A stretch of DNA of 55,426 bases. Origin: Acidimicrobiia bacterium. GTDB taxonomy: Bacteria; Actinomycetota; Acidimicrobiia; Spongiisociales; Spongiisociaceae. The notes below the pieces were generated by a model, which saw nothing but the letters and a program-made list of their open reading frames with translations, was not told the DNA's origin and searched no databases. The stretch lies in NCBI GenBank assembly GCA_009838635.1, contig VXRE01000016.1, forward strand, positions 1-55,426, in the 5' to 3' direction. Below are positions 15,554-36,423 of this stretch, piece after piece. A program made the position numbers and the translations under genes. The first letter of the stretch is position 1; every line of letters starts with the position of its first letter.

Positions 15554-15596
15554 ACAGCTGGCTAGAGCAGGTACTTGTTACAGCGTGGGGGTCAAC

Positions 15597-16073: not shown

Positions 16074-16117
16074 CCCGGCTTCGACCCTGTCCGAGAACTC
16101 GCTCTACCGCCGGTCGG

Positions 16118-16735: not shown

Positions 16736-17086
16736 GGCGGCGACTCTAGTGAGGGCAATCGGGGGTCGTTCGTGTTCGTGCGCCCCCGGCCAGGACACGG
16801 TGGTCCGTCTGGCCGTTCCCCTTCCGCTGACGCTCGGCCTTTCAGCACAACAAGGGGCGATGTATGGCGGGATGGGACAGAGTGGATGAAACGTGTCACA
16901 GGCTTTCTATATGTTGCCTGTCGCCAAGCACCTACACCGGCCCGAAGGCTCTCATCGATCGACTCGGCCGGCCCGGAGGGAATAGACAAGGCTTCGTGGA
17001 GCGAACCGCCTACACCCGGCAGCCAGCCGGGCATGGCTGACCACGCTCCAAGCCAGGACAGGTGGTGGCGGGGGAGGGCCCGGTGC

Positions 17087-17140
17087 GGAGCGCCGGTTTT
17101 TCGGAGCGCCGGTTTTTCGCGAGTTTTTCGCGGGTTTTGC
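17087..17140. repeat. tandem direct repeat with phased T5 tracts
   Basis: GGAGCGCCGGTTTTTC occurs twice in perfect tandem (17087-17102 and 17103-17118). Two degenerate 11-nt units follow, GCGAGTTTTTC and GCGGGTTTTGC. T-tract starts are spaced 16, 11 and 11 nt. Confidence 0.9.
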
Positions 17141-17261
17141 CCGGAATCTCGGTTCTTGATGCACAGGGCACCATATTTGACGTCCTGATCCTGAGGTTCA
17201 CCGCACCACGGATGACGCTCTGAGCCTTAGGTTCGTGGCGTGCTGTGGCGGGTTCTGAACC

Positions 17262-20320: not shown

Positions 20321-21066
20321 CGCCACTCGGTGTGGATCACCATCTGACGTTCCTCGATGTCCTCCAGGGCCTTGACCAGGGCTGCGTCTCTCGAGTCGTC
20401 CAGCCGTTCCTTCACCCGGGTGATCACGGTGTGGTGAAAATGCTGCGCGACCAGACGGGTGACGTGTACCACGAGAGTCCGGAACAGCTCGGCCAGCTCG
20501 ACGGGCCGGTCGGGCTGGTTGTCGCGGATGTGTTCATTGAACAGGTCGATGGCCGCGTCCACCACGCTCTCCACGGATGTGGCGTGCCGGGCCGCCAGGG
20601 CCGCCAGCTTGTCGAGGGGGAACCCCGCCTCCAGCAGCGACATGCCGGCAGCCAGCATCGGCGCCACATCGGGAGCGAATCGCTCCTCCTCGCCGTTGCC
20701 GAGCGGCTGGATGAGGCCGGCAGACACCGCGATGTCCACCAGATGGGGTGGTAGCCCGGAGCGCTCGGCAAGCTCGGCCCGCCCCAGGCCGACAGTGGCC
20801 CCGGCCAGCGACTCCAGCAGCGGATGCCCCGATTCGTCCAGCAGGCGCTTGATCTGAGCCAGGGTGAAGCCGTCGTCGGCGAGGGCCCGGATGGTCCGCA
20901 ACCGGGTCAGGTGGGCGCTCCGGTACACCACCGAGCGGCCATCCCGGTCGGTGGGGGGTAGGAGGCCCATCCCCTGGTAGTAGCGGATGGTGTCGACCCC
21001 GACCCCGGCCTCGGCGGCCAGGTGCTCCACCCGATATGCCGTAGCGTCGCCAGCCATAGCACCCAC
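20317..21066 (-). CDS. MerR family transcriptional regulator with ~170-aa C-terminal domain of unknown function
   Basis: N-terminal MerR HTH reads YRVEHLAAEAGVGVDTIRYYQGMGLLPP...LTRLRTIRALADDGFTLAQIKRLL. An alternative start is at 21057. Confidence 0.85.
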   Translation of the reverse strand: MGAMAGDATAYRVEHLAAEAGVGVDTIRYYQGMGLLPPTDRDGRSVVYRSAHLTRLRTIRALADDGFTLAQIKRLLDESGHPLLESLAGATVGLGRAELAERSGLPPHLVDIAVSAGLIQPLGNGEEERFAPDVAPMLAAGMSLLEAGFPLDKLAALAARHATSVESVVDAAIDLFNEHIRDNQPDRPVELAELFRTLVVHVTRLVAQHFHHTVITRVKERLDDSRDAALVKALEDIEERQMVIHTEWR

Positions 21067-21104
21067 TCTAGGAGTGATCGCTCACATCTCTCGCTCCGAG
21101 ACGG

Positions 21105-22986: not shown

Positions 22987-23059
22987 GGGCCTGTAGCTCA
23001 GTAGGCAGAGCAGCGGACTTTTAATCCGAAGGTCGAGGGTTCGACTCCCTCCGGGCCCA
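22987..23059 (+). tRNA. tRNA-Lys (anticodon UUU)
   Basis: 73-nt cloverleaf folded by hand. Acceptor stem GGGCCTG/CGGGCCC, D stem GCTC/GAGC, anticodon loop CTTTTAA, T stem GAGGG/CCCTC, T loop TTCGACT, discriminator A. No encoded CCA. Confidence 0.9.
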
Positions 23060-23356
23060 CGATGTTTCCATCCTGGGGAGCGGTCCCGGGTCTCGAGCAA
23101 CTCCGAGAGAACCAGCAGTCTCGAGGAATGCCGGTTATCACTCGACAACCGGATTGTGCGCGATAGGAGCATCATGACTCCCCGCACTAGCAACAGCATC
23201 CCAGCCCCACACAATTGCGCAGCATCTGAGAACGCACCGTCGGCCGCTCTCGCTGCGGCCTGATCGCCGGACGACCCGACAGGATCCCGAACGCTCATCG
23301 AGTCCGTACCGAGTTGCGACATCTGCTCTCGCGTGCTCTACGGTGGGATTTACAAA

Positions 23357-23368
23357 AGCGATATCGCT
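23357..23368. promoter_or_regulatory. perfect 12-bp palindrome AGCGATATCGCT, candidate (TetR?) operator
   Basis: Lies immediately upstream of the -35 element of the ABC importer promoter. A near copy, AGCGACATCGGT, with similar flanks occurs at 29252-29263 in the TetR/CoA-ligase divergent region. Confidence 0.45.
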
Positions 23369-23371
23369 CTC

Positions 23372-23400
23372 TTGACAGGTCCGCTGAGGCCACCTATCGT
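23372..23400 (+). promoter_or_regulatory. candidate promoter of the ABC importer operon
   Basis: TTGACA (23372-23377), a 17-nt spacer, then TATCGT (23395-23400). RBS AAGGAG at 23447-23452 sits 5 nt before ATG 23458. Confidence 0.45.
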
Positions 23401-23457
23401 CGGATTCCGGTTGGCGCCGTAGGTCTCCGCCGGGTCTTGTCAGTCCAAGGAGTGACC

Positions 23458-24846
23458 ATGTACATGATCCGACCCGATAAGGGAGCGAAGGTTCGCGGAT
23501 TGCGCTTGTTGCCCGCGCTAGTCACGATTGTGAGCCTCGTAGCGGCCGCATGCGGCGATGGCTCGTCAGGTGATTCTGCTCCAGAAACCGCGCCCACGAC
23601 CGCGGCTACGACGGCGGCTACGACCGCGGCTACGACGGCGGCTACAACTGCGGCTACGACCGCGGCCGTGACTCAGGCCGTGGAGGCCGGCGTGGACGAT
23701 CGCAATTGCGTCGATGAGGTGGTCATCGGCACCGTGTGGCCCATGTCAGGGACGTTCAGCTTCGTCGGAGACGCCGAGATTGCCGGGGCGACCAAGGCGG
23801 TGGAGGACATCAACGCGGCGGGCGGAATCGAGTCGCTGTGCGGGGCCTCGTTGCGGCTGGCGATTTACGACGCGGGCGGCTCCGCCGAGGAGGCGGCCAC
23901 CGCTGTTGAGCGACTCCTGGACGACGAACCCGGCGTGTCGGCCATCGCCGGTTCCTGGCTGTCATCGTTCAGCCTGGCCGCGACCGAGGTGAGCGAGCGA
24001 GCGGGGATCCCGTTCGTCACCGAGAGCTTCGCCGACTCCGTAACCGACCGTGAGGGCTTCCGCCATGTGTTCGGCTACTCGCCTCCGGCGTCGGCCATCA
24101 AGGGCCTGATACTCGAGGCCATCCAGCCCGGCCTGGACCAGGCGGGGATCACGATGGAGACCGTGGCGGTGGTGGGCTCCACATCGGCTGCAGCCGTGCC
24201 GCTGCAGGAAGCACTGCTGGCCGAGTTCAGCGAGCGAGGGATCGAGGTCGCAGTTACTGACACCTGGGCGCCGGGTGGCCTTGACGACCCCTCGGGCGTG
24301 GCAACCAAGATCGCCAACGCCGACGTCGACGTCATCTTCAACATCGCATTCGCATTCAGCGATGTGAGCGGACTCCAGAACGAGTTGATCGCCCGCGGCG
24401 TCACTGCACCGGTCGTCCAGAACGGCGGACAGGGGCTACTGCCTGCATGGGCAGACCTCGGTCCGGAGGTGGCCGGGCTGTCCACGTTCGTGTATGCCAA
24501 TCCCCTCGCCGGTAGTGACGCGTTCCCCGAGCTGGCAGCCGCGATCGACCAGCCCTACGCCCGCCAGGACCACATCGGCGGCTACTTCGTGATACAGCTC
24601 ATCGCGGCTGTGCTCGAGCAGGCCGGCGATCCATCCCCGGCCGCGGTTACCGAGGCGTTCAGCTCCATCAGGCTGACCGAGGGCGTCGCTGTCGACCTCA
24701 TGCCGACGTCGGAGATCAGCTTCAGCGAAACCGGTCGCATCGACCAGCACTTCGGCGTCCTGGCACAATGGCAGGAGGTTGACGGGAGGCTGATCCCGTG
24801 CACCGTCTATCCGGTCGAGTTCGCGGTTTGCCAACCGGTTTGGTAG
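23458..24846 (+). CDS. ABC transporter substrate-binding lipoprotein, Leu/Ile/Val-binding (LivJ/AmiC) family
   Basis: Signal peptide with lipobox (LVAAAC), followed by a Thr/Ala linker. The periplasmic-binding type I pattern and operon context with LivHMGF-type components support the call. The start is set at the RBS-preceded ATG 23458. Confidence 0.8.
   Translation: MYMIRPDKGAKVRGLRLLPALVTIVSLVAAACGDGSSGDSAPETAPTTAATTAATTAATTAATTAATTAAVTQAVEAGVDDRNCVDEVVIGTVWPMSGTFSFVGDAEIAGATKAVEDINAAGGIESLCGASLRLAIYDAGGSAEEAATAVERLLDDEPGVSAIAGSWLSSFSLAATEVSERAGIPFVTESFADSVTDREGFRHVFGYSPPASAIKGLILEAIQPGLDQAGITMETVAVVGSTSAAAVPLQEALLAEFSERGIEVAVTDTWAPGGLDDPSGVATKIANADVDVIFNIAFAFSDVSGLQNELIARGVTAPVVQNGGQGLLPAWADLGPEVAGLSTFVYANPLAGSDAFPELAAAIDQPYARQDHIGGYFVIQLIAAVLEQAGDPSPAAVTEAFSSIRLTEGVAVDLMPTSEISFSETGRIDQHFGVLAQWQEVDGRLIPCTVYPVEFAVCQPVW
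23596..23667 (+). repeat. 12-bp tandem repeat x6 inside the SBP linker, encoding (TTAA)n
   Basis: ACGACCGCGGCT / ACGACGGCGGCT units alternate for six copies. They encode TTAATTAATTAATTAATTAATTAA just after the lipobox. Confidence 0.9.
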
Positions 24847-25030
24847 TGACTGAGGGTCTGTCCCCATCGGCTCGGCGGTGCGCTCCCTCGGTGCCCGCGC
24901 CCCGACGTCGTCCTCACCGGGACCGGACGCGGGCTCTGGCAGCGGGAAGAAGCCTCAGCAGTTAGCGACGACAAACCGAGCGGGGGCGGTGAGAACTTGA
25001 GGCGTCGGCACCGAGAGCGACCTGCGCAGG

Positions 25031-25927
25031 GTGCCTGCTGAGGCGATGGTCGAGTTTCTGCAGTTCCTTGTTCCCGGGATCCTGATCGGCGGCGTCTACG
25101 CCCTGCTGGCGTCTGGCCTCGGGCTGATCTTCGGCGTGATGCGCGTGGTGAACTTCGCGCAGGCCGACTTCATGATGCTCGCCATGTACCTCTCATGGGC
25201 GCTGTTCGCGGGCGGTGTCGGCTTGGACCCGTTCCTGGCGGTGCCCGCCGTCTTCTTCGTGTTCCTGCTGTTGGGGATGGCGGTCCACTGGCTCTTCATC
25301 CGCTTTGTGATCGGCCGGCGTGAGAATCACGATGCTCAAGTGATACTCACCATCGGACTGGGCCTGATCTTCCAGAATCTCATCCTGATCAGGTACTCGT
25401 CGGAGCCGCGGGTGGTCGCGCCGTCCTACGCCAATGCGGGCGACTTCATCGGTGACATATTCATCAGCCGAGTACGTCTCTACGCCTTCCTCCTCTCGGT
25501 GCTGGTGGCGGCGCTCGTCTTCCTGTTCCTCAACCGGTCCGCCACCGGGCGGGCCATTCGGGCCGCGTCGGAGAATTGGGAGGCAGCGACATACATGGGC
25601 GTCGACATCGATCGCACGAACCGTATCGCCTTCGGGGTTGGCGTGGCGCTCACCGCGGTGGGCGGTTCGGCCCTTGTGACGTTCCAGAGCATCACGCCGT
25701 TCGTGGGGCTCCGGTTCGTGGTCGTCATGTTCGCAGCGGTGGTGCTCGGCGGCCTCGGCAGTGTCAGAGGTGCCTTTGTGGGGGGCGTGCTCATCGGGGT
25801 CATCCAGTCCGTGTCGCAGGTGTGGACTTCGGCTGCGGTGAAGAACGTCTGGGTCTTCGCCTTGTTTCTGCTCATTCTCTACGTGCGGCCCAACGGCCTG
25901 TTCGGTAAGGCCCAGCGCGCCATCTGA
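25031..25927 (+). CDS. branched-chain amino acid-type ABC transporter permease (LivH-like)
   Basis: About 8 hydrophobic segments with the typical LivH pattern (GVMRVVNFAQADFMML). An alternative start is ATG 25046. Confidence 0.85.
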   Translation: MPAEAMVEFLQFLVPGILIGGVYALLASGLGLIFGVMRVVNFAQADFMMLAMYLSWALFAGGVGLDPFLAVPAVFFVFLLLGMAVHWLFIRFVIGRRENHDAQVILTIGLGLIFQNLILIRYSSEPRVVAPSYANAGDFIGDIFISRVRLYAFLLSVLVAALVFLFLNRSATGRAIRAASENWEAATYMGVDIDRTNRIAFGVGVALTAVGGSALVTFQSITPFVGLRFVVVMFAAVVLGGLGSVRGAFVGGVLIGVIQSVSQVWTSAAVKNVWVFALFLLILYVRPNGLFGKAQRAI

Positions 25928-27729
25928 TGCGGCGCCTGCTTCCGTTCATAGTGCTAGTAGTCGGCGTCGCCGCCCTCAACGGCTGGCTCGAGCAGCGGTT
26001 CTACGTGAGGGTGCTCACCTTGACGGTCGTCTGGGCGCTCGCCGGCGTGGCCTGGAATCTGATGGCCAAGGCCGGGCAGATCTCGCTCGGCCACAGCGCG
26101 TTCGTCGGCATCGGCGCGTACGGCTTCACGATCCTGCTGCGAGGCGGCGGCACCTCGCCATGGATCGGCATGGCTCTCGGCATGGGAGTCGCCGCGGTGG
26201 TGGCGCTTGCCATCGGCCTGCCCACCTTCCGGCTCAGGGGGTTCTACTTCACCCTTGCCACCATCTCCTTCCCGCTCATCTTGGAACTGTTGGTGTCCCA
26301 CTACGGGGATCCCGAACTCACGGTTCCGTTCCACCCCGAGAACGAGTGGAGGTTCATGGAATTCTCCGATCCCCACACCTACGTTTGGGTCGGCCTAGCG
26401 ATGCTTGTCGTTGCGTTGATGATCAGCGAGCTGATAGATGTGACTTCGTTCGGGTACGCGCTACGTGCCGTTCGAGACAACGAAGTCCTAGCCCGGGCGG
26501 TGGGCATTCGTACTGTCGCATGGAAGACGGCGGCGTTCATGATCTCGGCGGCGCTGTCGGCGGCCATGGCCGTGCTCTGGGTGAAGGCCGTCCTGCGGGT
26601 GACCGTCGCCGAGGAGGTCTTTGGCATTACCGTGGTGATCGTCATGCTGTCCGTGGCGTTCGTAGGCGGGGTGGGACAGACCTGGGGGCCGGTCGTCGGC
26701 GCGGCCTTCCTCATCCCGCTAGCGATGTTCCTGGACGATTCGATCGGCGAGTCCGTGCCCGGCGCGCAGGAGCTCGTCTACGCGGCCGCGCTGGTACTCG
26801 TCGCACTGCTGATACCGCGCGGAATCCTCCCGGCGATCGAGAGGGGCTGGCGCTGGGTCGCGACCCGGCCCGGTCGATCACGTGAGCCGGAAGGTCGGCC
26901 CCTTCTCGGGCGTCTCGCGGTGCCTCCGCAACGGCCGTCGCCGTTCTTGAGCATGTCGCGAAGACCCCTCCGGCCGAGGCTGCCGCGGCCGAGCGATGCG
27001 CCTGTGCTCGAGGTGGAGGGCGTAGCCAAAAGCTTCGGCGCCAATCGCGTACTGTCCGACGTGGCCTTAAGGATCGATGCCGGCCGGCGTATCGGCATCA
27101 TCGGTCCCAACGGTGCGGGCAAGACGACGCTCTTCAACATCATTACCGCCCACCTACGCGCAGATGCCGGACGGATCCTGTTCAAGGGGATGAAGGTGGA
27201 TCGGATGCGCGCGCCGCGGCGTTACGAACTCGGCATGTCACGAACATTCCAAGTTCCCCAGGGTTTCCATCTCATGTCTCCGCTCGACAATGTCGTGGTG
27301 GCTGCGATCGGTGCCTCGATACCGCATCCGGTAGCCGCGTCGATGGCGATGCTCGAGCGGGTCGGCCTCGCCGGTCGCGCGCTCGGTGAGTTGAGCGCTC
27401 TCACCACGGCCGAGATCAAGAGCCTCGAGTTGGCGCGGGCCATGGTGAGCGAGCCGGAGTTGCTGCTGCTCGATGAGCCACTCGCCGGCCTGAACGAAGC
27501 CGAACGTGCCCGCTTTTTCGAGACTGTCGACGAGCTGGTCACCCCGCAGACGGCGATCGTGGTGATCGAGCACTCGGTCCGGTCGCTGATTCAGTACGTC
27601 GAATCGGTGGTCGCGCTCGATGAGGGCCGCGTCATCGTCCAAGGCCCACCGGCAGATGTCGTGTCGGACCCGCGCGTGATCAAGTCCTACCTCGGATCAA
27701 GATGGATGGAACATGTTAGAGATCAGTGA
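25927..27729 (+). CDS. fused LivM-like permease / LivG-like ATP-binding protein
   Basis: The N-terminal ~320 aa are polytopic permease. A Pro/Arg-rich linker follows (~aa 305-355). The ABC ATPase domain carries Walker A GPNGAGKTT, signature-like LTTAEIKSLELARAM and Walker B LLLLDEP. There is no in-frame stop between the halves. A TGATG overlap links it to LivH. Confidence 0.8.
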   Translation: MRRLLPFIVLVVGVAALNGWLEQRFYVRVLTLTVVWALAGVAWNLMAKAGQISLGHSAFVGIGAYGFTILLRGGGTSPWIGMALGMGVAAVVALAIGLPTFRLRGFYFTLATISFPLILELLVSHYGDPELTVPFHPENEWRFMEFSDPHTYVWVGLAMLVVALMISELIDVTSFGYALRAVRDNEVLARAVGIRTVAWKTAAFMISAALSAAMAVLWVKAVLRVTVAEEVFGITVVIVMLSVAFVGGVGQTWGPVVGAAFLIPLAMFLDDSIGESVPGAQELVYAAALVLVALLIPRGILPAIERGWRWVATRPGRSREPEGRPLLGRLAVPPQRPSPFLSMSRRPLRPRLPRPSDAPVLEVEGVAKSFGANRVLSDVALRIDAGRRIGIIGPNGAGKTTLFNIITAHLRADAGRILFKGMKVDRMRAPRRYELGMSRTFQVPQGFHLMSPLDNVVVAAIGASIPHPVAASMAMLERVGLAGRALGELSALTTAEIKSLELARAMVSEPELLLLDEPLAGLNEAERARFFETVDELVTPQTAIVVIEHSVRSLIQYVESVVALDEGRVIVQGPPADVVSDPRVIKSYLGSRWMEHVRDQ

Positions 27730-28426
27730 TCTCCGTGCCAGCTACGACGGAGTCCCGGCGTTGCGCTCCATCGACTTCCAGGTCGGAGCGGGGGAGCGTG
27801 TGGCCATCCTGGGACCCAATGGCGCGGGCAAGACCACCCTGCTGAAGACGATCAGCGGCACCGTGGAGGTAGACGCGGGCACGATCCGCTTCGAAGGCCG
27901 GGATCTTCACTCTCAGCCGCCGCACAAACGCGTCGAGGCCGGAATCGTACACGTGCCCCAGGGGCGGATGATCTTTGCATCGATGACGGTGACCGACAAT
28001 CTTCGCCTCGGCAGCCACCGCGGCGGCGCCCAGCACCGGCACGGCGAACGCCTCGATCTGGTGCTCGAGATCTTCCCTGCGCTGGCCGACATGCTCAACC
28101 GGGACGGAGGCGCGTTGTCGGGAGGCCAGCAGCAAATGCTGGCGGTTGCTCGCGGCGTGATGGCCTGCCCACGGCTGCTCATGCTCGACGAACCCTCGAT
28201 GGGGCTGGCTCCTCGCGCCGCGGACAGCGTCTTCGAGGGCATCGCGCGGCTGCTCGAGAGCGAGACGACCGCAACGATCGTCGTGGAGCAACGCGCCCAT
28301 GAGGCGCTCGAGATTTGTGAACGGGCCTACGTGCTCGAGTCCGGGGAGGTGGTCCTGGAGGCCTCGAACCGGGCGCTCCTGACCGACGAGAGGCTAGCTG
28401 CCGCTTATCTGGGCTCGGAGACATGA
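27713..28426 (+). CDS. ABC transporter ATP-binding protein (LivF-like)
   Basis: Walker A GPNGAGKTT, signature LSGGQQQML and Walker B LLMLDEPS. It overlaps the preceding gene by 17 nt. Confidence 0.9.
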   Translation: MLEISDLRASYDGVPALRSIDFQVGAGERVAILGPNGAGKTTLLKTISGTVEVDAGTIRFEGRDLHSQPPHKRVEAGIVHVPQGRMIFASMTVTDNLRLGSHRGGAQHRHGERLDLVLEIFPALADMLNRDGGALSGGQQQMLAVARGVMACPRLLMLDEPSMGLAPRAADSVFEGIARLLESETTATIVVEQRAHEALEICERAYVLESGEVVLEASNRALLTDERLAAAYLGSET

Positions 28427-28491
28427 GGCGCCCGTCGGGCACCGCGTCGGCAGGGATCATCCTCGACCGCGCGGCGGGTTGGGTGGTCTTG

Positions 28492-29109
28492 TCAGTCTGT
28501 GGAGGGACTCCCGTAGAAGGTGCGGTACCAGGCTCTGGTGACGATACGGGCTACCGTCTCCACGTCCACGGGCGCCGTGTTGAGGGCGGCGTGGGCGAAT
28601 GTCGTGTAGGCGGTTTGCTCGACCAGGGAAGCCATCGCTCGGGCCACCGTGGCTGGATCAAGTCCGTCGAGTTGGACGCGTTCGTCGTCCTCGACTGCAT
28701 GGACGAACCGGGCGACGTGGCGTTCGCGCATGGTCCACCAGATGGTGGTGAATCGCTCCTCGACCGTTGTCGCCTCGATGAATGCCCGCAGCACGCCGCT
28801 GTTGTCGCGGTAGTGCTGGAGGTATCCGAGGTTGGCTTCGAACAGAGCGGCCTCAGGGTCCTCGGCGATGGGTGTCGACGACCGGCTCCTCCGGAAGAGT
28901 TCCTCGTGGAGGTTCCGGATGACACTCCGGAAGAGGTCCTCCTTGTTATCGAAATACCTGTACAGGCCTCCGAAGGAGAGTCCTGCCTGTACTGCGACAT
29001 CGCTCATGCGGGCATCGACGTAGCCGTCCTTGGTGAAGACCTTCGACGCTGCGTCGAGGATCCCCTGTCGCGTCCGGTGGCCTTTAGGGGTGGTCGGCTC
29101 GGTGGCCAT
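28492..29109 (-). CDS. TetR/AcrR family transcriptional regulator
   Basis: N-terminal HTH reads RTRQGILDAASKVFTKDGYVDARMSDVAVQAGLSFGGLYRYFDNKEDL. Start is set at MATEPTT, with alternatives at 29121 and 29124. Confidence 0.85.
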   Translation of the reverse strand: MATEPTTPKGHRTRQGILDAASKVFTKDGYVDARMSDVAVQAGLSFGGLYRYFDNKEDLFRSVIRNLHEELFRRSRSSTPIAEDPEAALFEANLGYLQHYRDNSGVLRAFIEATTVEERFTTIWWTMRERHVARFVHAVEDDERVQLDGLDPATVARAMASLVEQTAYTTFAHAALNTAPVDVETVARIVTRAWYRTFYGSPSTD

Positions 29110-29251
29110 GGGCGCTCCCATCATTCGAGGGCGTCTGTAGGTCGTGAGGCACGTGACCGGGCCCCGTGTTGCTGGTCCCTGTGCGGGTCGTCTCGAGTCT
29201 GTGGGCCCGCGGCGAAGGATGTTACCTTTCGTGCCTCCACCCAACAAAGAA

Positions 29252-29263
29252 AGCGACATCGGT
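29252..29263. promoter_or_regulatory. near-palindrome AGCGACATCGGT, second copy of the candidate operator
   Basis: 10 of 12 positions are identical to 23357-23368. The flanks are also similar (AAA..TCTT.AC). It is followed by a possible promoter: TTCTTA (29264-29269), an 18-nt spacer, then TACTGT (29288-29293). Confidence 0.4.
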
Positions 29264-29327
29264 TTCTTACTATGGGTGATCCTGCGATACTGTGGCAAGG
29301 CACCCCGGCCGGGCTTGGAGGCGTGCT

Positions 29328-30944
29328 GTGATCGATGACCTCGCAGAACGCTACCGGCTCGCGGGATGGTGGACAGGCCGCCCGCTGGTCGACCGCTTCG
29401 AGGCGCACGTCAACGAGGCGCCCTGCGAGCCTGCCGTGGTGAGCGGCGGCGACACGCTGTCGCGGTCCGAGCTCTGGGAGGCGTCCGGCGAGGCCGCGGA
29501 GGAGATCCGCCGGGTCGCCGGTGGGGGCAGGCGGGTGGTAGTCGTCTCTCTGCCCAACTGTATGGAGTGGGTCGTCATGTTCCTGGGCGTGTTGAGAGCG
29601 GGCCACGTTCCGGCCACGCTTCCGGTCACCACGCCCGAGGCGCATTTGCGCCACATCTTCGATCTCGTCCAGCCGGTCCTGGTGGTCTGCGCCGGCCGGA
29701 GCCGTCGAAAGTCGCCCGCTGACGCGGTCAGGCGAGCCGCCGCCGAAGCTTCCGCCGACATCGCTGTCGCAGCGGTGGATGGAGCCCGCCTCGCGATGCA
29801 TGGCCCGGTGGTCCCCCCGGCCCGGGCCGTTGATGTGCCCGAGACCACCGCACACGTGATGTTCACGTCGAGCACGACGGGGCCCCCGAAGGCCGTCAGC
29901 CATAGCGAGGACACGTTGGCCTCGCTGAACGTGCAGTTCGCCGATCGGTTCGGGCTCGACCATGGCACGCCCGTTTTCATGCCCTCACCGCTCGGCCACA
30001 GCGTCGGCGCTATTCATGGTGCCCGCCTGTCGTTGTTCTTGGGCGCACTGCTCATCCTCCAAAGGGAGTGGGACCCGGTCGCCGCGCTGGAGCTGGTGGC
30101 TCGTCACCGCGCCGACTTCACTGCGGCTGCGACCCCGTTTCTGATGGATCTGGCCAATGCCTCGTGGCCCGGCCGCGAGCCGAAGCTGGCGTCGCTGCGG
30201 AGCTTCCTGTGCGGAGGAGCCCAGGTGCCTCCTGCCCTTGTCCGGCGCTGCCGAACCGAGTTGCCGAACACGTTCGTCACGCCCTTGTGGGGCATGACCG
30301 AGGGCGGCCTCACCACCTGTGTGCCCTCGTCGACCGACAGCCAGGTCGAGAACACCGTTGGAGTGGGACTTCCCGGGCTGGAACTGCGAACCCTCGACGC
30401 GGGCATGCGGTTGCAAGCCACGGGGGCCGGTGAGCTTGTCATGCGAGGGCCTGGGGTGTTCAACGGCTACTACGGCCAACCCGAGTTGTACGCTGAGCAC
30501 ATCGTCGGCGACGGGTTCTTCCGCACCGGCGATCTCGCCCGGATCGATCCCGACGGATACGTGTCGATCACGGGACGGGCCAAGGATCTGATCATCCGTG
30601 GGGCGGTGAACATCTCCCCCGTCGAGACCGAGAACGCGATCGCCGGCCACCCCGACGTGGTCGGTGTGGCCGTTATCGGGTGGCCCGACGAGCGTCTCGG
30701 CGAGCGCATCTGCGCGGTCGTTCAGGCCGGCGCCCACCTCGACATCGACGATGTCATCGCGTCCTGCGCCGAGCAGGGCTTGCCGCGGCGTTTATGGCCC
30801 GAACGACTGATAAAGGTCGATCGCTTCCCACGTACAGCCTCCGGCAAGATACGCAAGCAGCAGTTGCGCGATGAACTCGTAAACGCCTCCGCCTCGACTG
30901 CCGCAGCGGATCCCGACGGTCCGGATCGGAGCGCGGCCGGATGA
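29328..30944 (+). CDS. AMP-dependent acyl-CoA synthetase/ligase
   Basis: AMP-binding motif FTSSTTGPPKAV, later GELVMRGPGVFNGYY, DGFFRTGDL and a C-terminal SGKIRK-like motif. The GTG at 29328 is preferred over the track start 29292 because of the predicted promoter position. Confidence 0.85.
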   Translation: MIDDLAERYRLAGWWTGRPLVDRFEAHVNEAPCEPAVVSGGDTLSRSELWEASGEAAEEIRRVAGGGRRVVVVSLPNCMEWVVMFLGVLRAGHVPATLPVTTPEAHLRHIFDLVQPVLVVCAGRSRRKSPADAVRRAAAEASADIAVAAVDGARLAMHGPVVPPARAVDVPETTAHVMFTSSTTGPPKAVSHSEDTLASLNVQFADRFGLDHGTPVFMPSPLGHSVGAIHGARLSLFLGALLILQREWDPVAALELVARHRADFTAAATPFLMDLANASWPGREPKLASLRSFLCGGAQVPPALVRRCRTELPNTFVTPLWGMTEGGLTTCVPSSTDSQVENTVGVGLPGLELRTLDAGMRLQATGAGELVMRGPGVFNGYYGQPELYAEHIVGDGFFRTGDLARIDPDGYVSITGRAKDLIIRGAVNISPVETENAIAGHPDVVGVAVIGWPDERLGERICAVVQAGAHLDIDDVIASCAEQGLPRRLWPERLIKVDRFPRTASGKIRKQQLRDELVNASASTAAADPDGPDRSAAG

Positions 30945-31738
30945 GCACCGTCGAGTTGGGCGACATAGTGGTCAATTACCGGCGCAGAGGCTCTGGGCAG
31001 CCGGTCGTGCTGGTGCACGGGCTGGCCGAGGACCTCCGCTCCTGGGACGCCGTCGCCACCCACCTGGGCGGATTTGCTGTCCACACGCTGGATCTTCGTG
31101 GTCACGGCGGCACAACCTCGGGGGAGGCCGACGGCACCCTGTCGCAACTGAGCGATGACCTCTCCGCCTTCCTGCGCGTCGTGACCGGCCCTGCCGCTGT
31201 CATCGGCTACTCACTGGGCGGCACCATCGGGCTCAAGGCTGCGTCCACACCAAGAACCCTGATCGGCCACCTGATCGCCGCCGCCACGTCATCGGTGGTC
31301 GGTTCGGCAGCGGCCGAGTTCTTCGCTCGTCGCATCGCCCAGATCGAGACCCGAGACTGGGACGGCTTCGCCGCCGGACTCCGCGATGACACAGCCCGCC
31401 AGGTTGTCACCGCAACCGACATCGACGCAATCACCTCGAAGCGCCTGGACGCCGTCGGGGACGGCCGCGGCTACATCAACGCCGCCCGGGCGATGATAGG
31501 AATCCGCTCCGAGCCGTTGAACCCCCGGCTGAGGCAGATCGAGGTTCCCGTGGACGTCATCGGGGCGGCCGGCGATGTATTCTGCCCGCGCCAGGCCGCC
31601 GATATCATCGTCGACAATGTCGACGACTGCCGGTACCACGAGGTGGCCGGGGCCGGCCATCTGCTCTCCGTAGACCAACCCGACGCCTACGGCAAGCTGC
31701 TCGCGGAGCTATTGCGCGAAAGGTGTACTGCAGCATGA
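30941..31738 (+). CDS. alpha/beta hydrolase
   Basis: HG oxyanion motif (VLVHGLAED) and nucleophile elbow GYSLGG. ATGA overlap with the ligase stop. Confidence 0.8.
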   Translation: MSTVELGDIVVNYRRRGSGQPVVLVHGLAEDLRSWDAVATHLGGFAVHTLDLRGHGGTTSGEADGTLSQLSDDLSAFLRVVTGPAAVIGYSLGGTIGLKAASTPRTLIGHLIAAATSSVVGSAAAEFFARRIAQIETRDWDGFAAGLRDDTARQVVTATDIDAITSKRLDAVGDGRGYINAARAMIGIRSEPLNPRLRQIEVPVDVIGAAGDVFCPRQAADIIVDNVDDCRYHEVAGAGHLLSVDQPDAYGKLLAELLRERCTAA

Positions 31739-32748
31739 AGAAGCGCTACGGCATTTCCTTGGGAGTCAGTCCCCGAGAGCCTCTGAGCCGGACGGCCGAA
31801 TTGGCGCGACGAATCGACCTCAGGGGTTTCGAGGCACTGTGGTATATCGACTTCCAGCTCGGAATGAAAGACGTGTATGCGGCCATGAACCTGGCAGCAC
31901 TGTCGACCGAGAAAGTGCTCATCGGGGCGGGTGTCACCAATCTGGTGACGCGTCACCCGACGGTGACCGCAAATGCCACCGCTGCGCTGGACGAACTCTC
32001 CAGCGGCCGCGCCGTGCTTGGCCTCGGAGCGGGTTGGTCTGCCGTGCTCGGCGCAGGCGGCACGCCGTCCAGGCTTAAAGAGCTGCGGTCCGGGATCGAT
32101 GAGTTCCGCCAACTCTTCAGCGGCGAGCCGTGCGACCTCTATGGCAGCCAGGTTCGCCTGGCCACCGCCAAGCGACAGGTTCCCATATATTTGGCGGTCT
32201 CGCAGCCTGCCATGTTGCAGCTCGCCGGAGAAACCTGCGACGGAGCCGTGCTCATGGGAGCCGCAGATCCCGAATTCTGCTCATGGCAACTCGACTACAT
32301 ACACCAGGGACTGGAAGCAGCCGGGCGTGACCGCAGGCAGCTGACCGTCGACCTGTTCGTCACCATGTCGGTGGGCGACGATGTGGAGAGCGCGACCGAC
32401 GACGTGAGAGCATGGGCCACCAGCCAGGCGGCCACCTTCCACCAATGGAAGCGGATGCCGCCTGCTTGGGAGAGGTTCCGTCCCGAGTTCGCTCGGGCCG
32501 CGGGGCAGTACGGTCTTGTCGACCACCTCTCGCTGCAGGCTGAGCACAAGCTCACCGTGTCCGACGACTTCGTGAGATCGGTGGCGCTGGCGGGCGACCT
32601 CGGCATGTGCGTAGACCGGATCCGTCAACTCTGGCAGCTCGACATCGACCGGATCACCTTCGCCCTGCTGTCCGGAGGGCGCGAGCAACGACTGGCACAG
32701 CTGGCAGACACGGTGATCGGTGCGGTCGAGGCAGGAGGAGGAAGCTAA
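31735..32748 (+). CDS. luciferase-like (LLM class) flavin/F420-dependent oxidoreductase
   Basis: TIM-barrel LLM pattern: FEALWYIDFQ, VTNLVTRHPTVTANATAALDELSSGRAVLGLGAG. ATGA overlap with the hydrolase stop. Confidence 0.75.
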   Translation: MKKRYGISLGVSPREPLSRTAELARRIDLRGFEALWYIDFQLGMKDVYAAMNLAALSTEKVLIGAGVTNLVTRHPTVTANATAALDELSSGRAVLGLGAGWSAVLGAGGTPSRLKELRSGIDEFRQLFSGEPCDLYGSQVRLATAKRQVPIYLAVSQPAMLQLAGETCDGAVLMGAADPEFCSWQLDYIHQGLEAAGRDRRQLTVDLFVTMSVGDDVESATDDVRAWATSQAATFHQWKRMPPAWERFRPEFARAAGQYGLVDHLSLQAEHKLTVSDDFVRSVALAGDLGMCVDRIRQLWQLDIDRITFALLSGGREQRLAQLADTVIGAVEAGGGS

Positions 32749-33509
32749 TGACAGGAAACCGGCGCGTGGCAATGGTGACCGCGGCAGCCGGCGCCGGCAT
32801 CGGAGCGGCGGTAGCGAGACGGCTCGCCGGCGACGGATTTGATGTCGTCGTCACCGACGCCCACCAGCGACGGTGCCGCGAGTTTGCCGGTGCACTGGCC
32901 GACGAGGTAGGACGCGAGGTGACCAGCTACCGCCTCGACGTCACCGACCACGATCAGGTGCGCAGCGTGATCTCAGAAGTCGCAGCTGCAAAGAACGGGC
33001 TCGATGTGCTGGTCAACAATGCGGGCTGGTCGAGGATCGAGCCGGTGGCCGAGATGTCTCTGGAAACGTGGCAGCGGTGCCTCGACGTCGACTTGACCGG
33101 CACATTCGTATGCATGCGCTACGCGCTCGAAGTAATGATCCCTCGTGCCGGTGGCTCGATCATCAACATCTCCTCGATAGCGGCCTGGGAGATGTCCGCC
33201 GAGCATGGCGCCGCCTACTCCGCAGCGAAGGCCGGCGTCCTCGCGCTGACCCGGGTGGCTGCAGCCGAGAACGGAGTCCACGGGGTGCGGGTCAACGCGG
33301 TGGCTCCGGGCCTGATCTACAACGATTTCTTGCGTAGGATCTACCCGCAGGAGTTCTTCGACAGCTACCTGTCCGACAAGGCGTTCCTGGGCCGTATGGG
33401 GCAGCCTGAGGATGTCGCGAGCATGGTGTCGTTTCTGGCGTCGGATGAGGCGGGCTACGTAACCGGTGAGGTGTTCACCGTCTCAGGAGGCGTGTCGGCT
33501 CGTGGATGA
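32748..33509 (+). CDS. SDR family oxidoreductase
   Basis: TAAAGAGIG (TGxxxGxG variant), NNAG and the YSAAK catalytic motif. TAATG junction with the LLM gene. Confidence 0.85.
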   Translation: MTGNRRVAMVTAAAGAGIGAAVARRLAGDGFDVVVTDAHQRRCREFAGALADEVGREVTSYRLDVTDHDQVRSVISEVAAAKNGLDVLVNNAGWSRIEPVAEMSLETWQRCLDVDLTGTFVCMRYALEVMIPRAGGSIINISSIAAWEMSAEHGAAYSAAKAGVLALTRVAAAENGVHGVRVNAVAPGLIYNDFLRRIYPQEFFDSYLSDKAFLGRMGQPEDVASMVSFLASDEAGYVTGEVFTVSGGVSARG

Positions 33510-34872
33510 GGGACCACTGTGGTGGCCGGTGCAGCGACTTGTCGAGGCCTACAGCGGCGGCGCGCTGTCGCCGGTAGAGGTCTCCGAGTTGGCGCAGGCC
33601 CGCCTAGCCCAGGTCAACCCGACCCTGCACGCCTTCGTTCTCGCCACCCCCGAGTTGGCCCACCGCCAGGCCGTCGCGGCCGAAGCGGCTTACCGGAACG
33701 GCAGCGCCGGTCCTCTCGCCGGCGTGCCTGTCTCGATCAAGGACGTTTTCCACATCAAGGGACACGTCACCACGCTGGGCTCCTTGGCCCACGCCAACGA
33801 CGTGGCCCGACACGACTCCGGTGTGGTGCGCCGCATGCTCCGCGCGGGAGCGGTCGTGGTCGGCAAGACCAACGTCTCGGAATTCTGCCAGTCGGCGACC
33901 ACGGATAACTTGCTGGGCCCCGACACCTCGAACCCCTATGACCCTTCTCGCACCGCCGGCGGGTCCAGCGGCGGCGCGGCGGCCGCTGTGGCTTCTGGTA
34001 CCTGCACCCTGGGCCTCGGGTCCGACGGCGGAGGCTCGATCCGGATCCCGGCCTCGTTCTGCGGACTCGTGGGCTTCAAGCCCACCTACGGGACCATCGA
34101 CGACCGCGGGGGATTCCGAGCGTTCAGCCCGTTCATCTCCGTAGGGCCCCTGGCGCGCACCGCCGCCGACTCCCGGCGCCTGCACTCGGTGCTGTCCGCC
34201 AACGGCACCGGCGCCCGAGACACTCAGGACGACCTGAGCCCGCGCCGCGTCGCTTGGTGCCCGAAGCCCGAAGGCCGCCCGATCGACGCCGACGTCGGCG
34301 ATGTGTTGGCTGCCGCGGTAAGGCGATTGGCAGCCTGCGGCCACGACGTGAGTTCCGTGGACCTGGACTTCGGCGGCTGGGAGGAGATATTCGGCCCACT
34401 CGTGCTGGCCGAGGAGGGCGAGCGCCGCGGCCACTTGCTTCGTGGTCCGCACGAGTTGACGTGGTATCAAAAACGGTCCCTGATGGCGGCCGAGCAACTC
34501 GATCCAGGTGTTCTGGCGGCAGCACGCTTCGCCCTGGCGCAGTACCGGAAGCGGGTGGACCGCTACTTCTCCTCCTACGACGTGATCGCCACTCCCGCCA
34601 CGGCCACCACCGCCTTCGAGTTGGGCTCCCGGCCCAGGACCATCGCCGGTGAGCCTGTGGGCCGGTTGTGGGGGGCCTTTCCGTTCGCGGCGCCCTTCAA
34701 CGTCTCCGGCCATCCGGCGGTGGTTCTGCCTGCCGGATTTGCCAACGGCCTCCCGGTTGCGATCCAGTTAGTGGGACGTTACGGGGGCGATACCGAGTTG
34801 CTGTCCCTCGTCGAGCAACTCGAGACCGAACTGGACCTGCGTCCCTTCTCCCGACTATCGCCCCGCCTGTGA
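33502..34872 (+). CDS. amidase-signature family amidase
   Basis: [45 protein letters not shown] is the classic AS signature with the Ser-cisSer-Lys context. The GTG start overlaps the SDR stop by 8 nt. Confidence 0.85.
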
Positions 34873-35651
34873 ATCCCCCGAGCGATGTCGTCAGCAGTGT
34901 CGATGGCTCGATCTGGCAGATCGAGATCAACCGGCCGCAGCGTGCCAACGCCCTCCGGCGCCGGACGATTCGCCAGATCGAAGCGGTCTTGGACGCGGTC
35001 GAGACTCAGGGATCCGACGCAACCCGGGCAACAGGAGTGGTGCTGACCGGTGGCCCCGAACGGTTTAGCGCAGGAGCGGATCTGTTCGAGTTGGCCGGCA
35101 CGATTGACGATCTGGGATTCGACGACGAACTCGAAAGGCTCTGCCGGCGTCTTACCCTGAGCCCGCTGCCGATGGTTGCGGCCGTCGAGGGTGCCTGTTA
35201 TGGCGGCGCCGTCGACCTGGCGTGGTCCTGCGATGCCGTGGTGGTTTCGGACGAGGCGCGTCTCGCCGTGCCCTCGGCCGGCCTGGGGATCCTCTACAAC
35301 CCGTCATCGTTGGCTCGTCTGCACGCCCGCCTCGGCTCGCAAACCGTCCGTCGCCTTGTCGTGCTGCAGCAAGAACTGTCGGGTCGGCAGCTTCCGCCTG
35401 ACACAGCAATGATCGTGCGCGCCGGGACCACCGTTGAGACGGCAAAGGGCCTGCTTGCGGGCCACTATCCGGGCTCGGCCGCCACAACAGCTACCAAGGC
35501 ATTGCTGGCGTCGCTCGACAGCGCTGAAGGGTTCGATGCTGCCGATTGGCAGTCCGAACGAGAGGCCCTCCTGGCATCACCGGCACGTCGAGCAAAACTG
35601 GAAGCCCGGCGAGCCGGGATCGGCAAGGATCGGACGAATGCACCTCAGTGA
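34869..35651 (+). CDS. enoyl-CoA hydratase/isomerase (crotonase) family protein
   Basis: FSAGADLFEL and GACYGGAVDLAWSCD oxyanion-hole blocks. GTGA overlap with the amidase stop. Confidence 0.8.
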   Translation: MNPPSDVVSSVDGSIWQIEINRPQRANALRRRTIRQIEAVLDAVETQGSDATRATGVVLTGGPERFSAGADLFELAGTIDDLGFDDELERLCRRLTLSPLPMVAAVEGACYGGAVDLAWSCDAVVVSDEARLAVPSAGLGILYNPSSLARLHARLGSQTVRRLVVLQQELSGRQLPPDTAMIVRAGTTVETAKGLLAGHYPGSAATTATKALLASLDSAEGFDAADWQSEREALLASPARRAKLEARRAGIGKDRTNAPQ

Positions 35652-36423
35652 CCTGACAGGCTTCGACCTCGGCCCGCGCCGCGTTGACTTCTCGGCCGAC
35701 GACGCCATCCTCTACGCGCTGGCCGTAGGTGCCCCTCCTTCGCACCTGGACCTGGTCTACGAGCAGAGTCTCCGGGTCCTACCTGCATACGGTTGCGCTC
35801 TGGGTCTGTGGGCAGTCCATGCAGCAGGCGAACTCGGCGCTTATGATCGCACCCGATCCCTCCATGTCGGCCAGAGCCTGACGGTGTACCAGCCACTCAG
35901 GCCCGGACCGATCCGCACCCACGGTTGCGTCCGGTCCGTCTTCGACAAGGGAAGGTTCACGATCATCGAGATAGAGGTGATGAGCCCCAGCTTCCGGGCT
36001 GTCTACACCATCCTGCTGCCCGGCATCGGGGGCTGGGGCGGAGATCCACCAGCGCGGTCCGACCGGCCCGCGCCCCTCGTCCCGGACTGGACCGGCACGG
36101 TGGACGTCGGACCTGACGCCGCGGTTCTCTACCGGCTAACCGGAGACAAACATCCCGTCCACATCGACCCGGTCGTAGCGGCCGGCCTGGGACTGAATGG
36201 GCCCATCCTGCACGGCCTGGCCACAATGGGTATGACCGCCCATGCCGTTGCAGCCGCCGTAGGCGCCCATCCGGCTAGCCTGTCGGCCGCTCTGGTCCGC
36301 TTCTCCAATCCCGTCTACCCCGGCTGCGAGATGCAAGTTGCAGCCGAGACCGAGCGAAACGCGGCGCGGGTCGAGACGTCTGTCGATGCGACAACCGTAA
36401 TGTCAGGAACGTTCACGTTCTGA
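35638..36423 (+). CDS. MaoC-like (R)-hydratase, double hot-dog
   Basis: C-terminal GDKHPVHIDPVVAAGLGLNGPILHG hydratase motif, with an N-terminal degenerate hot-dog half. It overlaps the crotonase gene by 14 nt. Confidence 0.75.
   Translation: MHLSDLTGFDLGPRRVDFSADDAILYALAVGAPPSHLDLVYEQSLRVLPAYGCALGLWAVHAAGELGAYDRTRSLHVGQSLTVYQPLRPGPIRTHGCVRSVFDKGRFTIIEIEVMSPSFRAVYTILLPGIGGWGGDPPARSDRPAPLVPDWTGTVDVGPDAAVLYRLTGDKHPVHIDPVVAAGLGLNGPILHGLATMGMTAHAVAAAVGAHPASLSAALVRFSNPVYPGCEMQVAAETERNAARVETSVDATTVMSGTFTF

Follow-up and report, generated by a model that had tools for sequence, protein, structure and literature searches.

A probable TetR-controlled, F420-linked catabolic regulon of an Acidimicrobiia bacterium, with relatives in several phyla

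The roles of cofactor F420 beyond methanogens and mycobacteria are poorly understood. Here we describe a gene cluster that offers a defined, conserved and regulated F420-linked pathway, located on contig VXRE01000016.1 of an Acidimicrobiia bacterium (assembly GCA_009838635.1). The stretch analysed, hereafter the window, comprises 55,426 nt with about 67% G+C, and all coordinates below are window positions unless another locus is named. Positions 23352-36423 probably constitute a single TetR-controlled catabolic regulon made of two operons, one for an importer and one for seven enzymes, which belongs to a conserved, horizontally spread, F420-linked family. That the regulon is F420-dependent and catabolic is very probable. 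The enzyme families are known; their combination has not been described before. The original prediction, a reading of this DNA alone, had proposed an orphan, fully coupled seven-gene catabolic cassette with a divergent TetR gene and a Liv-type importer upstream; the presence of a TetR repressor and a dedicated importer fits its catabolic interpretation.

The seven open reading frames (ORFs) of the enzyme operon, taken from the ORF list and from reading of the sequence, run on the forward strand from 29328 to 36423:

29328..30944, + strand: LIG, AMP-forming acyl/aryl-CoA ligase (Pfam, NCBIfam and PDB matches)
30941..31738, + strand: ABH, alpha/beta-fold hydrolase (Pfam, NCBIfam, orthologue alignment)
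31735..32748, + strand: LLM, Mer-like luciferase-like hydride transferase (LLHT), predicted to be F420-dependent (Pfam, NCBIfam, PDB, structural model)
32748..33509, + strand: SDR, classical short-chain dehydrogenase/reductase (Pfam, NCBIfam, orthologue alignment)
33502..34872, + strand: AMI, amidase-signature hydrolase (Pfam, NCBIfam, orthologue alignment)
34869..35651, + strand: ECH, non-canonical crotonase-fold protein, an accessory gene (Pfam, alignment, synteny)
35638..36423, + strand: MAOC, double hot-dog MaoC/hydratase-2-type enoyl-CoA hydratase, an accessory gene (Pfam, alignment, synteny)

Base-by-base reading of the junctions reproduced exactly the seven ORFs and six overlapping or abutting boundaries first proposed: ATGA at 30941 (LIG/ABH) and at 31735 (ABH/LLM), TAATG at 32746-32750 (LLM/SDR), an 8-nt overlap of the AMI GTG at 33502 with the SDR stop at 33509, GTGA at 34869 (AMI/ECH), and a 14-nt overlap of the MAOC ATG at 35638 with the ECH stop at 35651. 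With the chosen starts, the products from LIG to MAOC measure 538, 265, 337, 253, 456, 260 and 261 amino acids, to be compared with 532-541, 263-268, 332-342, 252-253, 455-468, 249-254 and 270-274 in independently called orthologues. Two further loci, L001 and L002, keep identical overlaps of 4, 4, 1 and 8 nt. Overlapping junctions by themselves are ordinary for high-GC operons; the organisation of the cluster goes beyond chance because its gene order is conserved across phyla and an operator is common to the importer and enzyme sites (none in 100 shuffles). The layout suggests that the seven genes are translationally coupled and co-transcribed.

Every family assignment was upheld by Pfam, with, in order, AMP-binding, Abhydrolase_6, Bac_luciferase, adh_short, Amidase, ECH_1, and MFE-2_hydrat-2_N plus MaoC_dehydratas. 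The GYSLGG, YSAAK and GGSSGG motifs and the amidase nucleophile motif are present as first read, and the catalytic residues of ABH, AMI, SDR, MAOC and LIG are invariant or almost so among 36-81 orthologues. No protein of the cluster reached an NCBIfam equivalog cut-off, and literature searches on this gene set, on the sponge symbiont genus and on F420 combined with amidase and CoA ligase returned no relevant description, in keeping with the initial view that no textbook pathway fits.

The cluster is not an orphan, as had been thought. We scanned one genome per species, 185,579 species in all, with four aligned LLM sequences that are 70-84% identical across classes. This search found 107 LLM relatives, of which the best 80 loci were fetched; neighbouring genes were then counted by tblastn, each over the loci with room for that gene. 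The cluster is present in more than 70 species-level genomes from several phyla, and its gene order, for which the original prediction had asked for a synteny check, is strongly kept. LLM is accompanied by LIG in 65 of 75 loci, by ABH in 67 of 75 and by SDR in 70 of 77, while AMI lies beside it in 58 of 77 and ECH or MAOC near it in 39 of 69. Expressed as proportions, the ligase–hydrolase–LLM–SDR order is retained in about 87–91% of loci, the amidase in 75%, and the crotonase and/or MaoC in 57%. The seven genes and their order are real, and the cultured Tamaricihabitans halophyticus has all seven in exactly the arrangement of the window, while the conserved unit is smaller: a core of four to five genes consisting of LIG, ABH, LLM, SDR and usually AMI. 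ECH and MAOC make up an accessory tail, since they occur in 39 of 69 loci only; in agreement, the read depth of the ECH-MaoC part in sponge runs, evidently DNA with contigs up to 78-93 kb, is about tenfold below that of the core. Searches for RNA runs yielded none beyond some of unknown kind. In actinomycetes, an acyl-CoA dehydrogenase (ACAD) gene may stand between ECH and MAOC (12 of 69 loci). Three loci in which amidase identity falls to 75%, 63% and 56% still run ligase, hydrolase, LLM, SDR, amidase; the last of them is that of Intrasporangium, from another class.

Actinobacterial carriers include sponge Acidimicrobiia (Poriferisodalis, Spongiisocius), Microthrix, Nocardioides, Intrasporangium, Tamaricihabitans, Thermoleophilia, Gordonia aichiensis, G. 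amarae, G. zhenghanii, Actinomadura madurae and Pseudonocardia thermophila. Several of these actinomycetes are cultured and tractable, which makes the pathway directly testable. Elsewhere, the cluster is found in sponge Pseudomonadales metagenome-assembled genomes (MAGs), SAR324, alpha- and deltaproteobacterial MAGs, and Binatia. Its G+C content tracks that of the host over a range of 47% to 68%, and LLM identity never drops below 64%; we read this as the outcome of old transfers under strong purifying selection. The plasmid collection held no LLM orthologue (best match, 36% identity). Among sponge-symbiotic Acidimicrobiia, the cluster is one of the most conserved accessory loci: AMI alone matches more than 80 cluster representatives at 70-97% identity, the few named ones being Acidimicrobiaceae or Candidatus Poriferisodalis, and matching DNA occurs in sponge metagenomes from at least 10 studies. 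With such conservation in sponge symbionts, the identity of the substrate would reveal a flow of nutrients from host to symbiont.

Some loci show rearrangements. One Acidimicrobiia contig (L086, 7245-8651) carries a 468-aa gene in which an LLM fragment, 91% identical to the LLM of the window, is joined to a crotonase fragment; with no ligase, hydrolase, SDR or amidase near, it looks like a remnant of cluster deletion. Two contigs of one Poriferisodalis assembly (L012 and L013) both bear TetR-ligase-hydrolase-LLM-SDR-amidase, once at a contig end, which is either a true duplication or an assembly artefact. An IS481-family transposase gene lies just 3' of the cluster in Actinomadura madurae (L060, 16859-18715), a possible trace of mobility. 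In a SAR324 MAG (L072), two PF06684 ('Amino acid synthesis') genes, at 2116-2697 and 14121-14705, flank a cluster of importer and enzymes.

The second operon of the proposed regulon encodes the importer, and lies upstream of the TetR gene and its intergenic region:

23352..23373, + strand: operator copy 1, ACAAAAGCGATATCGCTCTCTT, predicted, about 85 nt 5' of the start of the solute-binding protein (SBP)
23372-23400: promoter-like site TTGACA-17-TATCGT, overlapping operator copy 1
23458..24846, + strand: SBP lipoprotein of a Liv/HAAT-type ABC importer (Peripla_BP_6, 130.5 bits)
25031..25927, + strand: LivH-type permease (BPD_transp_2 in orthologues)
25927..27729, + strand: fused LivM-type permease and LivG-type ATPase (BPD_transp_2, ABC_tran and BCA_ABC_TP_C in a 602-aa orthologue)
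27713..28426, + strand: LivF-type ATPase (comparison with orthologous loci)
28492..29124, - strand: TetR-family repressor (TetR_N, 51 bits for a cut-off of 24; EthR_C, 26 bits)
29247..29268, + strand: operator copy 2, AAGAAAGCGACATCGGTTTCTT, a predicted imperfect palindrome in the gap between the TetR and ligase genes, 60 nt 5' of the LIG start

The divergent TetR gene and the Liv-type importer were both present as originally described; what had escaped notice is the tie between importer and enzymes through a second copy of the operator. The repressor shows an N-terminal helix-turn-helix, a divergent target operon and a palindrome in the shared intergenic region, which we predict to be its operator. 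Its start may be any of three ATG codons (29124, 29121 or 29109), giving 205-210 aa, beside 205-223 aa in orthologues. A degenerate 22-bp consensus of the operator has three matches over both strands at two sites of the window and none in 100 shuffles. The operator also precedes the ligase gene in Acidimicrobiia, Gordonia, Nocardioides, Actinomadura, Pseudonocardiaceae, Solirubrobacteraceae, Thermoleophilaceae and one proteobacterial MAG, and a matrix scan over 1.65 Mb of loci gave 86 sites, nearly all of them either in the TetR/ligase gap or 5' of an importer. The importer so preceded is a Liv-type SBP system in Acidimicrobiia and Nocardioides, and a major facilitator superfamily (MFS) transporter of the MHS type in Gordonia, Actinomadura and Pseudonocardiaceae. 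As the operator precedes both importer and enzymes and is conserved across phyla, we take the two operons to be one TetR regulon; the different importer types placed under one operator would therefore serve one substrate.

The same operator marks additional genes in some lineages. Gordonia aichiensis has an extra site before genes for an M20 amidohydrolase, a 485-aa protein and an isochorismatase-family hydrolase. In Thermoleophilaceae, a site lies between genes for an acetyl-CoA acetyltransferase (661 bits, cut-off 580) and an acetoacetate-CoA ligase (920 bits, cut-off 639). In one Acidimicrobiales genome, operator and ligase are separated by genes for a second hydrolase and a CUT2-type ABC system. 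Regions 5' of the importer and of the ligase gave no Rfam riboswitch match, the only Rfam match being to a tRNA: a tRNA-Lys(UUU) gene at 22987-23060 (+ strand), between a LigD-like gene and operator copy 1. A genomic island at this tRNA gene was considered and rejected, as neither a repeat of the tRNA 3' end nor an integrase was found and the GC content shows no shift.

The SBP has a lipobox (LVAAAC) followed by a Thr/Ala-rich linker, and its ATG at 23458 is preceded by an AAGGAG Shine-Dalgarno sequence. It is 89-95% identical in Acidimicrobiia relatives; solved homologues are too distant to inform on its ligand, the best being a LivJ-type protein (3e-15). The linker, (TTAA)n in Thr/Ala notation, is encoded after the lipobox by a 12-bp tandem repeat with 6.7 copies of ACCGCGGCTACG at 23587-23666, and its length likely varies between strains.

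The F420 link comes from LLM itself and from its neighbours in other genomes. Few genes of the cluster are as well conserved as LLM, which keeps 64-96% identity across phyla and has the Bac_luciferase TIM-barrel fold (PF00296, 161.6 bits), which an AlphaFold2 model supports. The original prediction had labelled it a flavin/F420 oxidoreductase of this family; the family stands, whereas the F420-type specificity and the F420 genes beside relatives had been missed. Its 20 or so best NCBIfam matches (1e-42 to 1e-11) are almost all F420-type families, with the exceptions of TIGR04020 (FMN-type, 9e-15) and TIGR03571 (cofactor not stated, 1e-11). The best PDB sequence match is Mer (1e-34), the F420-dependent methylene-tetrahydromethanopterin reductase, then FGD, fHMAD and Adf. 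The model, built from 25 orthologues (pLDDT 87.8), has Mer 1f07 as its top Foldseek match (TM-score 0.80, about 27% identity), and F420 enzymes occupy all of the first 28 Foldseek positions. On these sequence and model comparisons, LLM is predicted to be a Mer-like, F420-dependent hydride transferase.

Genes for the synthesis or reduction of F420 adjoin the cluster in L078, L082, L003/L066, L069, L058, L059, L063, L064 and L055, which represent at least five lineages. The deltaproteobacterial MAG L078 has FbiC-CofC-CofD-CofE-Fno-TetR on one strand, divergent from the cluster. In L082, CofD, CofE, Fno and TetR are arranged in the same way, with CofC two unrelated ORFs further on and no FbiC in the stretch fetched. 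Intrasporangium has MAOC-FbiC-FGD, with FbiC starting 3 nt after MaoC and FGD at equivalog level; Nocardioides has MAOC-FbiC-Fno-CofC-like, and Gordonia aichiensis MaoC-FbiC-CofC-like. In L078 and L059, the adjacent Fno scores above the equivalog cut-off for NpdG. Because the neighbours include F420-reducing enzymes (Fno, FGD), LLM most likely uses F420H2 and its step would be reductive.

Bac_luciferase is mainly a family of monooxygenases dependent on flavin mononucleotide (FMN), and LLM could in principle open a ring oxidatively in the style of RutA, PyrA or type II Baeyer-Villiger enzymes, the F420 adjacency being coincidental. A flavoprotein resembling a Baeyer-Villiger monooxygenase is encoded 5' of the ligase in sponge Pseudomonadales and near LLM in Binatia, and some hosts, such as Pseudomonadales, are not known as F420 producers. 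We nevertheless consider an FMN enzyme unlikely: typical FMN monooxygenase families match LLM at 1e-4 or worse in NCBIfam, far from the values of the mostly F420-type families above, the leading structural matches are F420 enzymes, no flavin reductase gene was seen in the window cluster or in annotated relatives, and the five lineages with F420 genes next to the cluster are independent, the distance to its last gene being at times only 3-4 nt.

An F420-linked role of the cluster bears on a wider question. According to a 2021 review (PMC8498797), studies of F420-dependent enzymes have not extended to bacteria other than Actinobacteria, and the reason why Proteobacteria produce F420 is an unanswered question. 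In proteobacterial MAGs, the cluster is right beside F420 biosynthesis genes.

LIG, whose P-loop and catalytic Lys are conserved in the orthologue alignment, is closest to cyclohexanecarboxylate-CoA ligase (AliA, TIGR03208) and to aryl-acid adenylating enzymes such as the salicylate-AMP ligase 5wm2 (5e-60). In ABH, the Ser-Asp-His triad has its Ser and Asp in 75 of 75 orthologues and its His in 74; its distant kin are esterases, the NicD deformylase, 3-oxoadipate enol-lactonase and the acetamidomethylene-succinate hydrolase of vitamin B6 breakdown. SDR has an Asn and the catalytic Tyr and Lys invariant in 74 orthologues. Its NISSIA motif contains two adjacent serines, one invariant and the other in 71 of 74, either of which may be catalytic. 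An Asp at the end of beta-2 favours NAD in classical SDRs; this residue is invariant here, suggesting that SDR prefers NAD, and the match to PRK07831 reaches 234 bits for a cut-off of 336. AMI is an amidase-signature enzyme (PF01425, 314 bits) with the Lys-cisSer-Ser triad: the SIKD lysine is present in 60 of 62 orthologues, and GGSSGG and both triad serines, nucleophile included, in 62 of 62. Actinomycetes have a second amidase, 38% identical to AMI, whose gene overlaps the last importer gene.

The two tail enzymes differ in how well they fit their families. MAOC combines PF22622 and PF01575 and has a hydratase-2 motif, T-G-D-x-H-P-V-H, with the Asp and both His invariant in 36 sequences and the Asn replaced by His. 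ECH lacks the two glutamates of canonical crotonases, at positions that we take, by the PROSITE signature, to correspond to Glu144 and Glu164 of rat enoyl-CoA hydratase. The Glu164 position, 20 residues after the signature acid, is Ser in the window and Ser or Ala, preceded by Pro, in 42 of 42 sequences; the Glu144 position is Asp in the window and Asp, His, Thr or Glu among the 42. The hydration originally ascribed to this crotonase is thus doubtful, and ECH may be a hydrolase, a decarboxylase or a mere substrate binder.

Would these enzymes suit the breakdown of fatty-acid amides, N-acyl amino acids or acyl-homoserine lactones, with ABH as a lactonase or esterase and AMI as an acylase, followed by beta-oxidation? 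FAAH and NylA are among the structural relatives of AMI, LIG also matches a medium-chain fatty-acid CoA ligase (303 bits), MaoC, ACAD and SDR suit beta-oxidation, and the acetoacetate-CoA ligase and thiolase of Thermoleophilaceae are under the operator. Such a pathway would, however, leave the highly conserved F420 hydride transferase without a role, and its hydratase glutamates are missing from ECH. The cluster has no thiolase or 3-hydroxyacyl-CoA dehydrogenase of the usual type, and the importers are of amino-acid, organic-acid and betaine types (Liv ABC, MHS-type MFS, BCCT), not lipid ones. We judge it improbable.

A biosynthetic cluster, for instance for an amide metabolite derived from an aryl acid, is extremely unlikely, even if the best PDB relatives of LIG are aryl-acid adenylating enzymes of siderophore and nonribosomal peptide synthetase (NRPS) pathways and F420-dependent LLHTs often serve antibiotic biosynthesis (PMC8498797). 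The gene content is mostly hydrolases; carrier protein, condensation domain, polyketide synthase or NRPS, and exporter are all absent from the cluster, and an uptake system is always under the same operator in the regulon. Streamlined symbionts, moreover, carry the cluster beside catabolic loci, as with taurine degradation in L001.

The catabolic, F420-linked regulon would work along the following lines, with the order of steps tentative and the mechanism as a whole conjectural. A small polar carboxylic acid, either amide-bearing or N-heterocyclic, would be imported. The amidase would hydrolyse an amide or lactam bond, the AliA-like ligase would convert the acid to a CoA thioester, and the Mer-like LLM would transfer a hydride from F420H2 to a C=C or C=N bond. 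The NAD-type SDR could then oxidise the resulting hydroxyl, and the alpha/beta hydrolase could perform a hydrolytic cleavage of a C-C, ester or thioester bond. The tail enzymes (crotonase-like protein and MaoC, with ACAD in actinomycetes) might lead to a short acyl-CoA, e.g. a C4 unit ending in acetoacetyl-CoA. The inducer would probably be the substrate or its CoA ester, freeing TetR from both operators.

Clues to the substrate come from the genes that accompany the cluster. The transporters encoded nearby fit small polar or zwitterionic solutes, being Liv ABC systems, MHS-type MFS and, in three lineages, BCCT proteins, and an OpuAC-type SBP gene adjoins the cluster in ten Acidimicrobiia loci. 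Amide hydrolases of up to four kinds occur in the regulon family, and in one lineage genes for acetoacetate-CoA ligase and thiolase are placed under the operator. These data weakly favour an amide-bearing or N-heterocyclic polar carboxylate that ends as a short acyl-CoA, and are compatible with the lactam, N-acyl or alicyclic-acid substrates suggested earlier. Molybdenum-hydroxylase subunits are encoded next to the cluster in Microthrix, Poriferisodalis and RHO1 bins and inside the operon in Thermoleophilaceae. As a fixed partner, this enzyme was rejected and kept as a weak lead, its neighbouring forms splitting into some like carbon monoxide dehydrogenase and others like XdhA or 4-hydroxybenzoyl-CoA reductase; a candidate large subunit in L075 proved to be an unrelated protein. 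An amine oxidase gene beside the amidase was likewise discarded as an amino-acid 2-monooxygenase: it occurs in one sub-lineage only, is convergent to the amidase gene and has no specific family match.

A narrower proposal is an oxygen-independent route for a pyridine or pyridinium N-heterocyclic carboxylate (nicotinate, picolinate, trigonelline, homarine, or a related lactam or imino acid). It would consist of CoA activation, ring reduction by F420H2, oxidation, and ring opening by the amidase and the alpha/beta hydrolase. This proposal is doubtful. If true, it would provide an alternative to nic, tgn and hom, all of them oxygenolytic, give sponge-symbiotic Acidimicrobiia a major means of harvesting a host or algal metabolite, and assign F420 a definite physiological function in SAR324 and marine Proteobacteria.

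Several observations weigh against the F420-linked regulon as outlined here, or against parts of it. LLM falls below every curated cut-off (NF002619, 144.1 vs 276; TIGR03842, 139.3 vs 295.45; TIGR03555, 133.4 vs 348.7), and we regard it as an undescribed LLHT subfamily for want of any curated subfamily or equivalog cut-off passed. The 55-kb window contains no F420 biosynthesis gene. Some marine F420 operons share the L078 gene order although no cluster accompanies them, so that the adjacency in L078 may be partly positional; such cluster-free FbiC operons also weaken the case for a co-transfer of F420 genes and cluster into Proteobacteria. About one quarter of the loci have no amidase, and sponge Pseudomonadales retain the four-gene core only. 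The molybdenum hydroxylases found nearby represent two or more subfamilies, and paralogues of them are common in the genomes concerned. Finally, the Thermoleophilaceae loci lack the AliA-like ligase, so that it may be a late product, and not the substrate, that is activated with CoA. One marine relative of the L078 F420 operon (L087, 4939-6498) has a 519-aa Fno-CofE fusion and FbiC twice, with no cluster near.

Whether the cluster is simply a pathway already characterised was assessed against the Ali/Bad, Rut, hom/tgn and npd picrate systems, and against Mer. It most resembles a hybrid of the Ali/Bad CoA route, the hydrolytic lower pathways of N-heterocycles (Rut, nic, B6) and the F420 reduction of npd. 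In Rhodopseudomonas palustris, the Ali/Bad route consists of the AliA ligase, the AliB ACAD, the BadK hydratase, the BadH SDR and the BadI crotonase-type ring hydrolase. Ligase, SDR, crotonase-fold and hydratase classes all recur in our cluster, ACAD joins them in actinomycete versions, AliA is the best NCBIfam model for LIG, and the glutamate-less ECH could, by analogy, hydrolyse as BadI does. Scores tell otherwise: LIG reaches 308.6 bits for an AliA cut-off of 792.3, the window has no ACAD, and the actinomycete ACAD reaches 125-153 bits for cut-offs of 575-650 in cyclohexanecarboxyl-CoA dehydrogenases. Ali/Bad also has no counterpart of the amidase, the alpha/beta hydrolase or the F420-type LLM.

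The Rut pathway of E. coli offers another set of parallels: LLM, alpha/beta hydrolase, amidohydrolase and TetR recall RutA, RutD, RutB and RutR, and both systems have a reductase/dehydrogenase step, in which an SDR can stand in for RutE. Gordonia aichiensis moreover has an isochorismatase-family, RutB-like gene under the operator. RutA opens the ring as a monooxygenase that depends on FMN and O2 and is served by a dedicated flavin reductase, whereas the LLM of the cluster is F420-type and comes without a reductase, and Rut has neither the CoA ligase nor the CoA tail. No match to RutA was obtained, and scores for RutD (41.4 vs 238.5) and RutR (29 vs 368) are far below their cut-offs.

Marine and plant N-heterocyclic carboxylate betaines are degraded by the hom (homarine) and tgn (trigonelline) operons, which are conserved and associate a regulator with a betaine-type transporter; the products of the hom operon are an FAD-binding protein, an oxygenase partner, a peptidase and a protein resembling aldehyde dehydrogenases (PMC13236597). 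BCCT or OpuAC genes beside our cluster in some lineages are reminiscent of this arrangement. Ring opening in hom/tgn differs, with a flavin reductase and an oxygenase followed by a peptidase and an aldehyde dehydrogenase, and with no CoA ligase, F420-type LLM or amidase-signature enzyme. Compared by published description, hom/tgn has no Pfam family in common with the seven enzymes, and the four hom proteins have no equivalent in the cluster.

The npd cluster for picrate and 2,4-dinitrophenol in Rhodococcus and Nocardioides is built on luciferase-like F420H2-dependent hydride transferases (PMC8498797). Both clusters center on LLHT-type genes, a likeness drawn by description, and the NpdG-type Fno of L078 and L059 adds to it. 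Genes for a CoA ligase, an enoyl-CoA hydratase and an acyl-CoA dehydrogenase are also part of npd. Unlike npd, our cluster has a conserved amidase-signature enzyme, an alpha/beta hydrolase and an SDR, together with polar-solute importers, and its wide occurrence in marine symbionts argues for a natural substrate rather than a nitroaromatic.

Mer is the closest solved relative of LLM by both sequence and fold, and automated pipelines label LLM orthologues 'methylenetetrahydromethanopterin reductase'. This annotation is almost certainly wrong, because LLM sits in a CoA-ligase/amidase/hydrolase operon unfit for one-carbon metabolism and misses the two Mer cut-offs (NF002619 and TIGR03555, above). 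None of the characterised LLHT functions listed in the F420 review corresponds to the cluster (PMC8498797). All in all, the cluster matches none of the characterised pathways. That it is one of them is very unlikely: the AliA match, the Rut-like set of families and the NpdG-type Fno speak for it, and the widely missed equivalog cut-offs (AliA, RutD, RutR, Mer), the missing RutA and hom components, and literature searches that gave no paper on this gene set speak against.

Other loci in and around the cluster are of separate interest. In the window, the reverse strand at 21105-22910 encodes a 601-aa fusion of AP_endonuc_2 (a xylose-isomerase-like TIM barrel) with a LigD primase-polymerase, unusual for a DNA-repair protein. 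A lower aromatic meta-cleavage gene set spans 1150-8609, with an IclR regulator, two hydratase/decarboxylases of the FAA-hydrolase family, an acylating acetaldehyde dehydrogenase, a DmpG-type aldolase, an aldehyde dehydrogenase and a Rieske ferredoxin. In the Poriferisodalis MAG L001, the cluster is followed, at 12991-21377, by an apparent taurine catabolism locus comprising a class III aminotransferase, an NMT1-type ABC importer, a phosphate acetyltransferase, a TetR regulator and a thiamine pyrophosphate enzyme of the sulfoacetaldehyde acetyltransferase type.

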